Shown here: positions 58,806 to 59,296 of the stretch, in pieces
Layout of the letters: each line of letters begins with the position of its first letter
How positions within the stretch are numbered: the first letter of the stretch is position 1
NCBI RefSeq assembly: GCF_003019035.1
Contig: NZ_CP027447.1
DNA from: Escherichia coli
Lineage (GTDB): Bacteria > Pseudomonadota > Gammaproteobacteria > Enterobacterales > Enterobacteriaceae
Reading direction: 5' to 3' (one strand)
DNA: 64,000 nucleotides
Made by a program: the position numbers and the translations under genes
The notes under the pieces: model-generated
Seen by the model: only the letters and a program-made list of their open reading frames with translations
Told to the model about the DNA's origin: nothing
Databases searched by the model: none

Positions 58806-59296
58806 CCTGTTTCAGAGATCGAATATTTGTAACGTTCTTAACATTATATATTCAACTCCACCTACACTTCTGAGCGATCTGAGCAGGCTAAATTCTGAAA
58901 AGCAGGTACAAATTAAATAATGATGTATCAATATCAACAATGAATTACCGCATATCAATGCTTGAAACATAATTAATTATTTAAATTTTTCTATCAGCAT
59001 CGCAAACTTCGCAATAAAACATCACTCAACTGAATATTTACCTTTCCCTGCCCTGGGCCTTTATCCGGTGAAACATTTGACATTGATTGACACCGATCAT
59101 TAAAATCCGCGCGATTAATATTATTGGCTACAAACCGAAATTGTTTGACACTTAATAACATATTCGCACAACCGATTAATACAAAAATTCTCTAACAAAT
59201 TTATTTGTCGGATATGCTCCACTCTAATCATTCATAAAAAAAATGATTGTGCCGTAATTATCAACTGTATCGGGATTATGAAAAGGAATTCATCCT

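Follow-up and report, generated by a model that had tools for sequence, protein, structure and literature searches.

A conserved core promoter in the AT-rich spacer upstream of an Escherichia coli sadB-adhesin operon, and its probable silencing by H-NS

The AT-rich spacer that separates yibL from a sadB-adhesin operon in the 64-kb stretch of Escherichia coli DNA analysed here (hereafter, the window) is, in our judgement, probably the transcriptional control region of that operon, with a near-consensus sigma-70 promoter that would be kept off by H-NS on the AT-rich arms flanking it. The base composition of the region, its promoter, the conservation and geometry of that promoter, the identity of the locus and its accessory status are all documented below from the DNA itself. 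Elements of this kind are already known, namely the AT-rich region upstream of the upaG/ehaG/sadBA operon, which is reported to be repressed by H-NS, and our results refine the published picture of H-NS-repressed adhesin genes without changing it. To that picture we add where the core promoter lies and how deeply it is conserved, the downgrading of two of the region's three TTGACA hexamers to non-conserved copies, and a distal block at a fixed distance from the promoter. The operon is of some consequence, as it encodes a large surface adhesin of the UpaG/EhaG/SadA family that is found in about three quarters of sequenced E. coli and is essentially silent in the laboratory.

For the identification of the locus we used the annotation of the SCU-301 chromosome, which is 100% identical to the window over the query. 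The gene order is mtlA-mtlD-mtlR, yibT (minus strand), yibL, the spacer, a sadB-like gene, a YadA-like adhesin gene and lldP. The same order is found in CFT073, where the adhesin gene at this position is annotated upaG. The genes bordering the spacer, and the spacer itself, are:

58376-58738, plus strand: yibL coding sequence (NCBIfam equivalog NF008244, E = 8e-57; annotated yibL in SCU-301 and in CFT073).
58739-59296: full non-coding spacer, 558 bp, 35.5% G+C.
59297-59980, plus strand: sadB-like inner-membrane lipoprotein gene (DUF3251), 227 aa (E = 7e-69 to PDB 4C47).
60024-64000, plus strand: YadA-like trimeric autotransporter adhesin gene, running off the window; positional orthologue of UpaG/EhaG/SadA (annotation and trimeric autotransporter family matches).

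The best match of the lipoprotein, PDB 4C47, is the crystal structure of Salmonella SadB; the protein has the lipobox LLAGC followed by Asp, is labelled in RefSeq as a DUF3251 or SadB/YajI family lipoprotein, and its gene is separated from the adhesin gene by 43 nt. The equivalent pair is c4423 (C_RS20890) followed by upaG in CFT073, and ECs_4479 followed by the adhesin gene ECs_4480 in O157:H7 Sakai. This shared position and gene pair identify what the original prediction had called simply an adhesin operon as the sadBA/upaG/ehaG locus described by Grin et al. 2014 (PMC3953254), and the window has the arrangement that defines such operons, a SadB-family lipoprotein gene directly 5' of a trimeric autotransporter gene, the pair being flanked by the mtl and lld operons. 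The part of the adhesin that lies within the window shares only 65% identity with UpaG and 55% with EhaG, and thus represents a further passenger-domain variant. Two other observations concern the locus. The third codon of the Sakai sadB orthologue is TAG (positions 38508-38516 of locus L005), so that the frame reads MN*KKIFFSAVTVSVLCALTGCDY..., and RefSeq represents ECs_4479 as a shortened protein from an internal TTG, without signal peptide and lipobox; judging from this codon, the helper lipoprotein of the Sakai (EHEC) adhesin may be inactive. The locus is also present, at 69-98% protein identity, in metagenome-assembled genomes labelled Oscillospiraceae, Collinsella and Bacillota (L010, L011 and L013), which are probably mis-binned E. 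coli contigs.

A leader of about 430 bp upstream of the lipoprotein gene had been singled out as unusually AT-rich. Its position is right, and the true spacer is slightly longer (58739-59296, 558 bp). The marked AT-richness itself is borne out, as 58860-59296 has 33.2% G+C where the window averages 50.7%, a level of AT-richness reached by only 1.2% of 437-bp windows. The two strings that had been pointed out are each present once, TTTGACATTGATTGACACCGAT at 59076 and TTGTTTGACACTT at 59141, and the repetition of TTGACA is well beyond expectation, with three copies (59077, 59087 and 59145) where 5000 dinucleotide-preserving shuffles gave 0.19 (P(>=3) = 0.0008). The entire 64 kb contains 11 copies, three of them within 58860-59296. 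Lower G+C does occur elsewhere in the window, reaching 24.7% near 51.1-51.7 kb in an Rhs/immunity region, so the spacer is not the only AT-rich stretch. That region (about 47100-51700) comprises an Rhs tip with an Imm57 immunity gene, a frameshifted ISAs1 transposase and a frameshifted Rhs core gene, an arrangement that is ordinary for Rhs loci. Two minus-strand ORFs of 52 aa and 55 aa in the spacer contain stop codons even in close alleles and are therefore non-coding.

The promoter prediction that had been proposed as a check gave one strong plus-strand site, TTGACA-18 nt-TAAAAT, at 59077-59106. The elements of this predicted promoter and its surroundings are:

59042-59076, plus strand: C-rich tract, 54% G+C, directly 5' of the -35 hexamer (composition and sequence reading).
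59077-59082, plus strand: -35 hexamer TTGACA of the predicted sadB-adhesin promoter, invariant in 12 of 12 orthologues.
59083-59100, plus strand: promoter spacer of 18 nt, holding the second TTGACA (59087-59092) and a GATC (59095), neither of them conserved.
59101-59106, plus strand: -10 hexamer TAAAAT, TA[AG][AC]AT in 12 of 12 orthologues, with positions 1, 2, 5 and 6 invariant.
59107-59113, plus strand: discriminator CCGCGCG, G+C only, conserved in type-A (window-type) alleles and in Pseudocitrobacter vendiensis.
59145-59150, plus strand: third TTGACA, at about +32 in the leader, without a -10 partner and not conserved (position matrix score 5.9, compared with 11.5 for the first copy).

In a consensus scan the site matches 11 of 12 consensus positions and has the hexamers and the 16-19 nt spacing of a sigma-70 promoter. 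Scoring both strands of the full 64 kb with a position matrix of approximate frequencies, across about 640,000 combinations of position and spacing, put this site at the top. Neither of the other two TTGACA copies has an acceptable -10, and their scores are 5.4-5.9 compared with 11.5 for the first. Our scans found no other good plus-strand promoter and no plus-strand terminator before sadB. They returned seven promoter-like sites where 2.6 ± 1.7 were expected, and an excess of such sites is typical of H-NS-silenced DNA. Given the usual distance of 7 nt past the -10, transcription would start at about 59113-59114, with a leader of about 184 nt. The discriminator consists entirely of G+C in window-type alleles and in P. 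vendiensis and is A-rich in the other haplotype of the spacer, a difference in sequence that could give the haplotypes different responses to ppGpp or supercoiling.

Conservation was assessed in two alignments, one of six E. coli alleles and one of 12 sequences, made up of eight Escherichia alleles, E. fergusonii, a Salmonella-labelled assembly (75% identical to E. coli across mtlR-yibL), P. vendiensis and P. corydidari. A scan of the genome collection with SadB gave only seven loci, and Salmonella, E. fergusonii and P. corydidari were added via protein search and contig look-ups. The orthologous spacers are 55-72% identical to that of the window and differ by many indels, and amid these diverged flanks the hexamers and their spacing are retained in 12 of the 12 sequences, which is the pattern looked for in a sigma-70 promoter. 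TTTGACA is the sole invariant run longer than four columns; it spans seven columns, a length reached in 0 of 20000 column permutations. The spacing between the -35 and the -10 is 18 nt in 11 of the 12 and 17 nt in Salmonella, and 189 ± 10 nt separate the end of the -10 from the ATG across the 12 orthologues. Spacer G+C is 31-35% in every orthologue despite the low identity, indicating that AT-richness is conserved and the sequence is not.

The two other hexamers have no such history. Where the window has its second TTGACA, other alleles have TTAATA, TTGATA or unrelated sequence, and in place of the third they have TTGTCA, CTGACA, TCTGCA or TTGA-A. The three hexamers therefore amount to one real -35 and two non-conserved copies, and the idea of repeated -35-like elements acting as a functional array has to be given up, as conservation and a -10 partner are found for the first TTGACA alone. 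With the one predicted functional TTGACA set apart from two decoys, and the promoter pinned to 59077-59106, there is now a precise target for reporter and mutational work. We also considered the TTGACA repeats as a Pho-box-like TGTCA array on the minus strand and as an FNR-like TTGAT-N4-ATCAA site, and rejected both, as by eye neither spacing nor orientation is right and only the first copy is conserved.

The alignments also separate two deeply divergent spacer haplotypes, about 62% identical (59060-59135 in the window and 38268-38343 in L005). Among 5426 complete E. coli genomes, the promoter block is of the window/CFT073 type in 1879 and of the Sakai type in 2267. P. vendiensis has the window/CFT073 type, and Salmonella, E. 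fergusonii and P. corydidari resemble the Sakai type. As far as such sequence comparisons go, this distribution suggests that old alleles have been exchanged across genera.

The promoter lies between two arms of low G+C:

58902-59041 (no strand assigned): upstream AT-rich arm, 27.1% G+C, candidate H-NS tract (composition; 20-30% mean G+C at the same place in the 12 orthologues; dense H-NS motif matches with at least 7 of 10 positions).
59114-59296, plus strand: predicted 5' leader of about 184 nt, 29.5% G+C, which is also the downstream AT-rich arm (composition).

In a composite of the 12 orthologues anchored on the -35, two stretches, about -190 to -40 and about +40 to +170, have 20-30% G+C, and the first 200 bp of sadB have 39% G+C. 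The region has two properties looked for in DNA subject to xenogeneic silencing: it is AT-rich relative to its host over hundreds of base pairs (33% compared with 51% G+C), and the segment is accessory, being absent from K-12-like genomes, in which a 96-nt REP-containing sequence takes the place of the interval that begins with the first base beyond the yibL stop codon and ends 22 nt 3' of the adhesin stop codon. Where the operon is missing (L003, 4040-4135), this 96-nt sequence joins yibL to the terminator hairpin of the adhesin gene, so that yibL there uses the adhesin gene's terminator. The spacer contains 19 sites that agree with the H-NS consensus motif TCGATAAATT at 7 or more of 10 positions, the most of any 558-bp tile of the window, and none scores above 8 of 10; this density largely restates AT content. 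Phased A-tracts are the classical signal of curvature, and they are not enriched in the spacer, where the 10.5-bp AA/TT periodicity is weak.

For repression by H-NS, silence in the laboratory and induction by TosR we draw on the literature on the orthologous operon, and their extension to the window would hold by analogy. Expression of both EhaG and UpaG is reportedly regulated by H-NS. In their passages on this subject, three papers citing Totsika et al. 2012 (Appl Environ Microbiol 78:2179) place UpaG among the UPEC autotransporters repressed by H-NS (PMC5012682), state that H-NS regulates trimeric autotransporters (PMC6956023) and state that H-NS represses autotransporter genes in UPEC (PMC3966885), and in these passages only PMC5012682 names UpaG. 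SadA was undetectable in culture, and the conditions of native sadBA expression are stated to be unknown (Grin et al. 2014, PMC3953254). In CFT073, the UPEC strain for which UpaG was described, overexpression of tosR raised the orthologous lipoprotein gene c4423 (C_RS20890) by log2 5.1, or about 34-fold (PMC5956150); TosR is a PapB-family regulator and a predicted antagonist of H-NS and Lrp, and the supplement of the TosR study has no upaG row. A Salmonella fur mutant showed a 4.2-fold decrease of STM3690 and a 3.1-fold increase of hns (PMC3212961), and a fall of STM3690 alongside a rise of hns is how an H-NS target would be expected to behave. In the Salmonella H-NS ChIP and transcription start supplements, nothing was found on the locus.

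Taken together, we propose that a single sigma-70 promoter at 59077-59106 would fire towards sadB from about 59113, producing the leader of about 184 nt, from a position between two AT-rich arms of about 140 and 180 bp with 27-30% G+C. H-NS, probably with StpA, would most likely coat or bridge both arms; RNA polymerase would then be occluded or trapped at an otherwise strong promoter, leaving the operon silent in ordinary culture, and expression would need a counter-silencer or a condition that loosens H-NS. It is the places of H-NS binding, the mode of promoter block and the exact start site that we infer in this scheme.

The remaining features of the spacer lie in the leader and behind yibL:

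58783-58806, plus strand: terminator-like hairpin of yibL, GCTCCTGC-N8-GCAGGAGC, followed by a weak U run (-17 kcal/mol, z = -2.3; kept in type-A alleles).
59225-59249, plus strand: inverted repeat UAAUCAUU-N9-AAUGAUUG in the leader (-3.6 kcal/mol, z = -2.1; arms conserved).
59283-59288, plus strand: Shine-Dalgarno sequence AAGGAA of sadB, 8 nt 5' of the ATG at 59297 (sequence reading).

The yibL hairpin was missed by the terminator scan because its T run is short, and the weakness of the U run means that some read-through from yibL is possible. The arms of the leader repeat show almost no compensatory change. An Rfam scan of 57800-59600 found no family above threshold, the lone match being a chance one to U4 snRNA (21 bits, 46 needed).

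One further element stands out in the alignment of 12 sequences:

58892-58901 (no strand assigned): distal block ATTCTGAAAA, with TC[TC]GAAA invariant, the most conserved 10-column window of the alignment.

The block is located at the upstream edge of the AT-rich arm, at the point where G+C drops, and the distance from ATTCTGAAAA to the -35 is 181 ± 3.5 bp in 12 of 12 sequences (range 172-186), or about 17 helical turns. The neighbouring intervals vary more, with a standard deviation of 16.6 bp from the yibL stop to the block and of 10.2 bp for the length of the leader. This geometry is kept in Escherichia, Salmonella and Pseudocitrobacter, with the sequence in between having diverged almost freely. 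As a second promoter the block was rejected, as it contains a -10-like hexamer with no -35 partner on either strand, and by eye it fits neither the site consensus of RcsB, Cra, Fis, IHF or FNR nor the sigma-E or sigma-32 promoter consensus. It may be the operator of a regulator, a nucleation or boundary site for H-NS, or the anchor of a loop of fixed size, and nothing else in the region has the potential to extend what is published. A bolder reading, which we offer as a possibility and on balance doubt, is that the core promoter and the block would together form a fixed-geometry repression loop or a dedicated-regulator operator controlling the switch-on of the operon, with the G+C discriminator adding growth-rate or stringent control in type-A alleles. 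The block also raises the question of whether H-NS is mere background and the gatekeeper is instead a dedicated transcription factor that binds at 58892-58901, perhaps also at the conserved CCGCGCGATTAATAT around the start, and acts over 181 bp. The degree of conservation of the block and the tightness of its distance (3.5 bp compared with 16.6 and 10.2 bp) speak for such a factor, as do the listing of Salmonella STM3690 as Fur- and Fnr-responsive (PMC3212961) and the statement that the native inducing conditions are unknown (PMC3953254). However, the segment holds only sadB and the adhesin gene and thus no regulator gene, none of the site consensuses compared by eye fits, and the block, which is short, coincides with a boundary in composition, which could in itself account for its conservation. 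We consider a dedicated gatekeeper unlikely; such a factor would in any case be compatible with silencing by H-NS and not exclusive of it.

Other readings of the region leave less room. E. coli intergenic DNA is generally AT-rich, equally AT-rich stretches are found elsewhere in the window and the yibL hairpin has no strong U run, so that the spacer might be unremarkable, its TTGACA copies being due to chance and the operon being read through from yibL or from a weak promoter elsewhere. Against this stand the number of TTGACA copies (three where 0.19 are expected, P = 0.0008), the rank of the promoter as the top-scoring site in 64 kb and the invariance of the first TTGACA and of a -10 of the form TA[AG][AC]AT across genera in flanks that are only 55-72% identical; this cross-genus conservation excludes a chance origin, and we regard a plain spacer as very unlikely. 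Control of sadB translation by the leader as a cis-acting RNA, a thermometer or riboswitch serving as the main control point, would agree with the conserved length of the leader (189 ± 10 nt), with a small hairpin that can pair the ribosome binding site and the AUG, and with the conserved AAUCAUU/AAUGAUU hairpin. Yet the whole leader folds no better than its shuffles (z = 0.11), nor does the hairpin over the ribosome binding site and AUG (z = -0.08), the covariation term is just -0.23 kcal/mol with few compensatory pairs, and the sequence is poorly conserved between allele types, which makes this reading highly improbable. We give least credence to a phase-variation switch, be it controlled by Dam and OxyR as in agn43, invertible as in fimS, or based on a slippery repeat that alters promoter spacing. 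Adhesin genes are often phase variable, and the region does hold a GATC in the promoter spacer at 59095, an A8 run at 59236 and a 19-nt imperfect inverted repeat pair at 58910/58969. But there are only three widely spaced GATC, two of them more than 200 bp from the one in the promoter, and the latter is missing in the Sakai, Eco15 and Z1323 alleles, among others, so that nothing like the conserved GATC cluster at the agn43 promoter is present. The inverted repeats are just 79% complementary and AT-rich, and a segment consisting only of sadB and the adhesin gene contains no recombinase gene. Of 1875 matching genomes, all 30 of the 30 matches listed are single pieces, with a second match in one genome only, which gives no sign of inverted variants; of the marks of fimS, the region shows only weak AT-rich inverted repeats, and neither a recombinase gene in the segment nor, among the matches listed, a second orientation. 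The A8 run, for its part, is a feature of the leader, outside the interval between the hexamers, and other alleles have mixed sequence in its place. The suggestion that the region may hold the regulatory switch of the operon thus survives in the sense of a promoter and finds no support in the sense of a bistable switch, there being no conserved GATC cluster and no repeat tract between the hexamers.

With a promoter silenced by H-NS as the preferred reading, the region can be placed among known systems. Like the agn43 and fimS switches it is regulatory DNA that precedes an adhesin gene, and its promoter contains a GATC; unlike them it has neither a GATC cluster nor a conserved GATC, lacks a flanking recombinase and, among the matches listed, has no inverted variants. 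It is more like the upstream regions of upaC, upaH, the F9 fimbriae and sslE, which are likewise AT-rich, silent in the laboratory and derepressed without H-NS (PMC5012682, PMC3966885). Those four have mapped promoters and gel-shift data, whereas binding of H-NS to the spacer in the window is a prediction. We know of no description of a distal block at a fixed distance for the promoters of upaC, upaH, F9 or sslE. In Salmonella, the sadBA operon is likewise flanked by the mtl and lld operons, and K-12 has lost it as a unit (PMC3953254); the native sadBA promoter was outside the study of Grin et al. 2014 (PMC3953254), and the Salmonella-labelled orthologue, with a spacer 57.7% identical to that of the window, has TTGACA-17-TAGCAT and keeps the distal block. 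The closest counterparts are upaG of UPEC CFT073 and ehaG of EHEC O157:H7, which occupy the same yibL-lldP locus with the same pair of lipoprotein and adhesin genes, the window carrying an adhesin allele different from both UpaG (65%) and EhaG (55%). The EHEC spacer belongs to the different haplotype and is 61.5% identical to that of the window, with the promoter kept, and the CFT073 spacer, with 95.2% identity, has a core promoter that is the same as that of the window in both hexamers and in their spacing.
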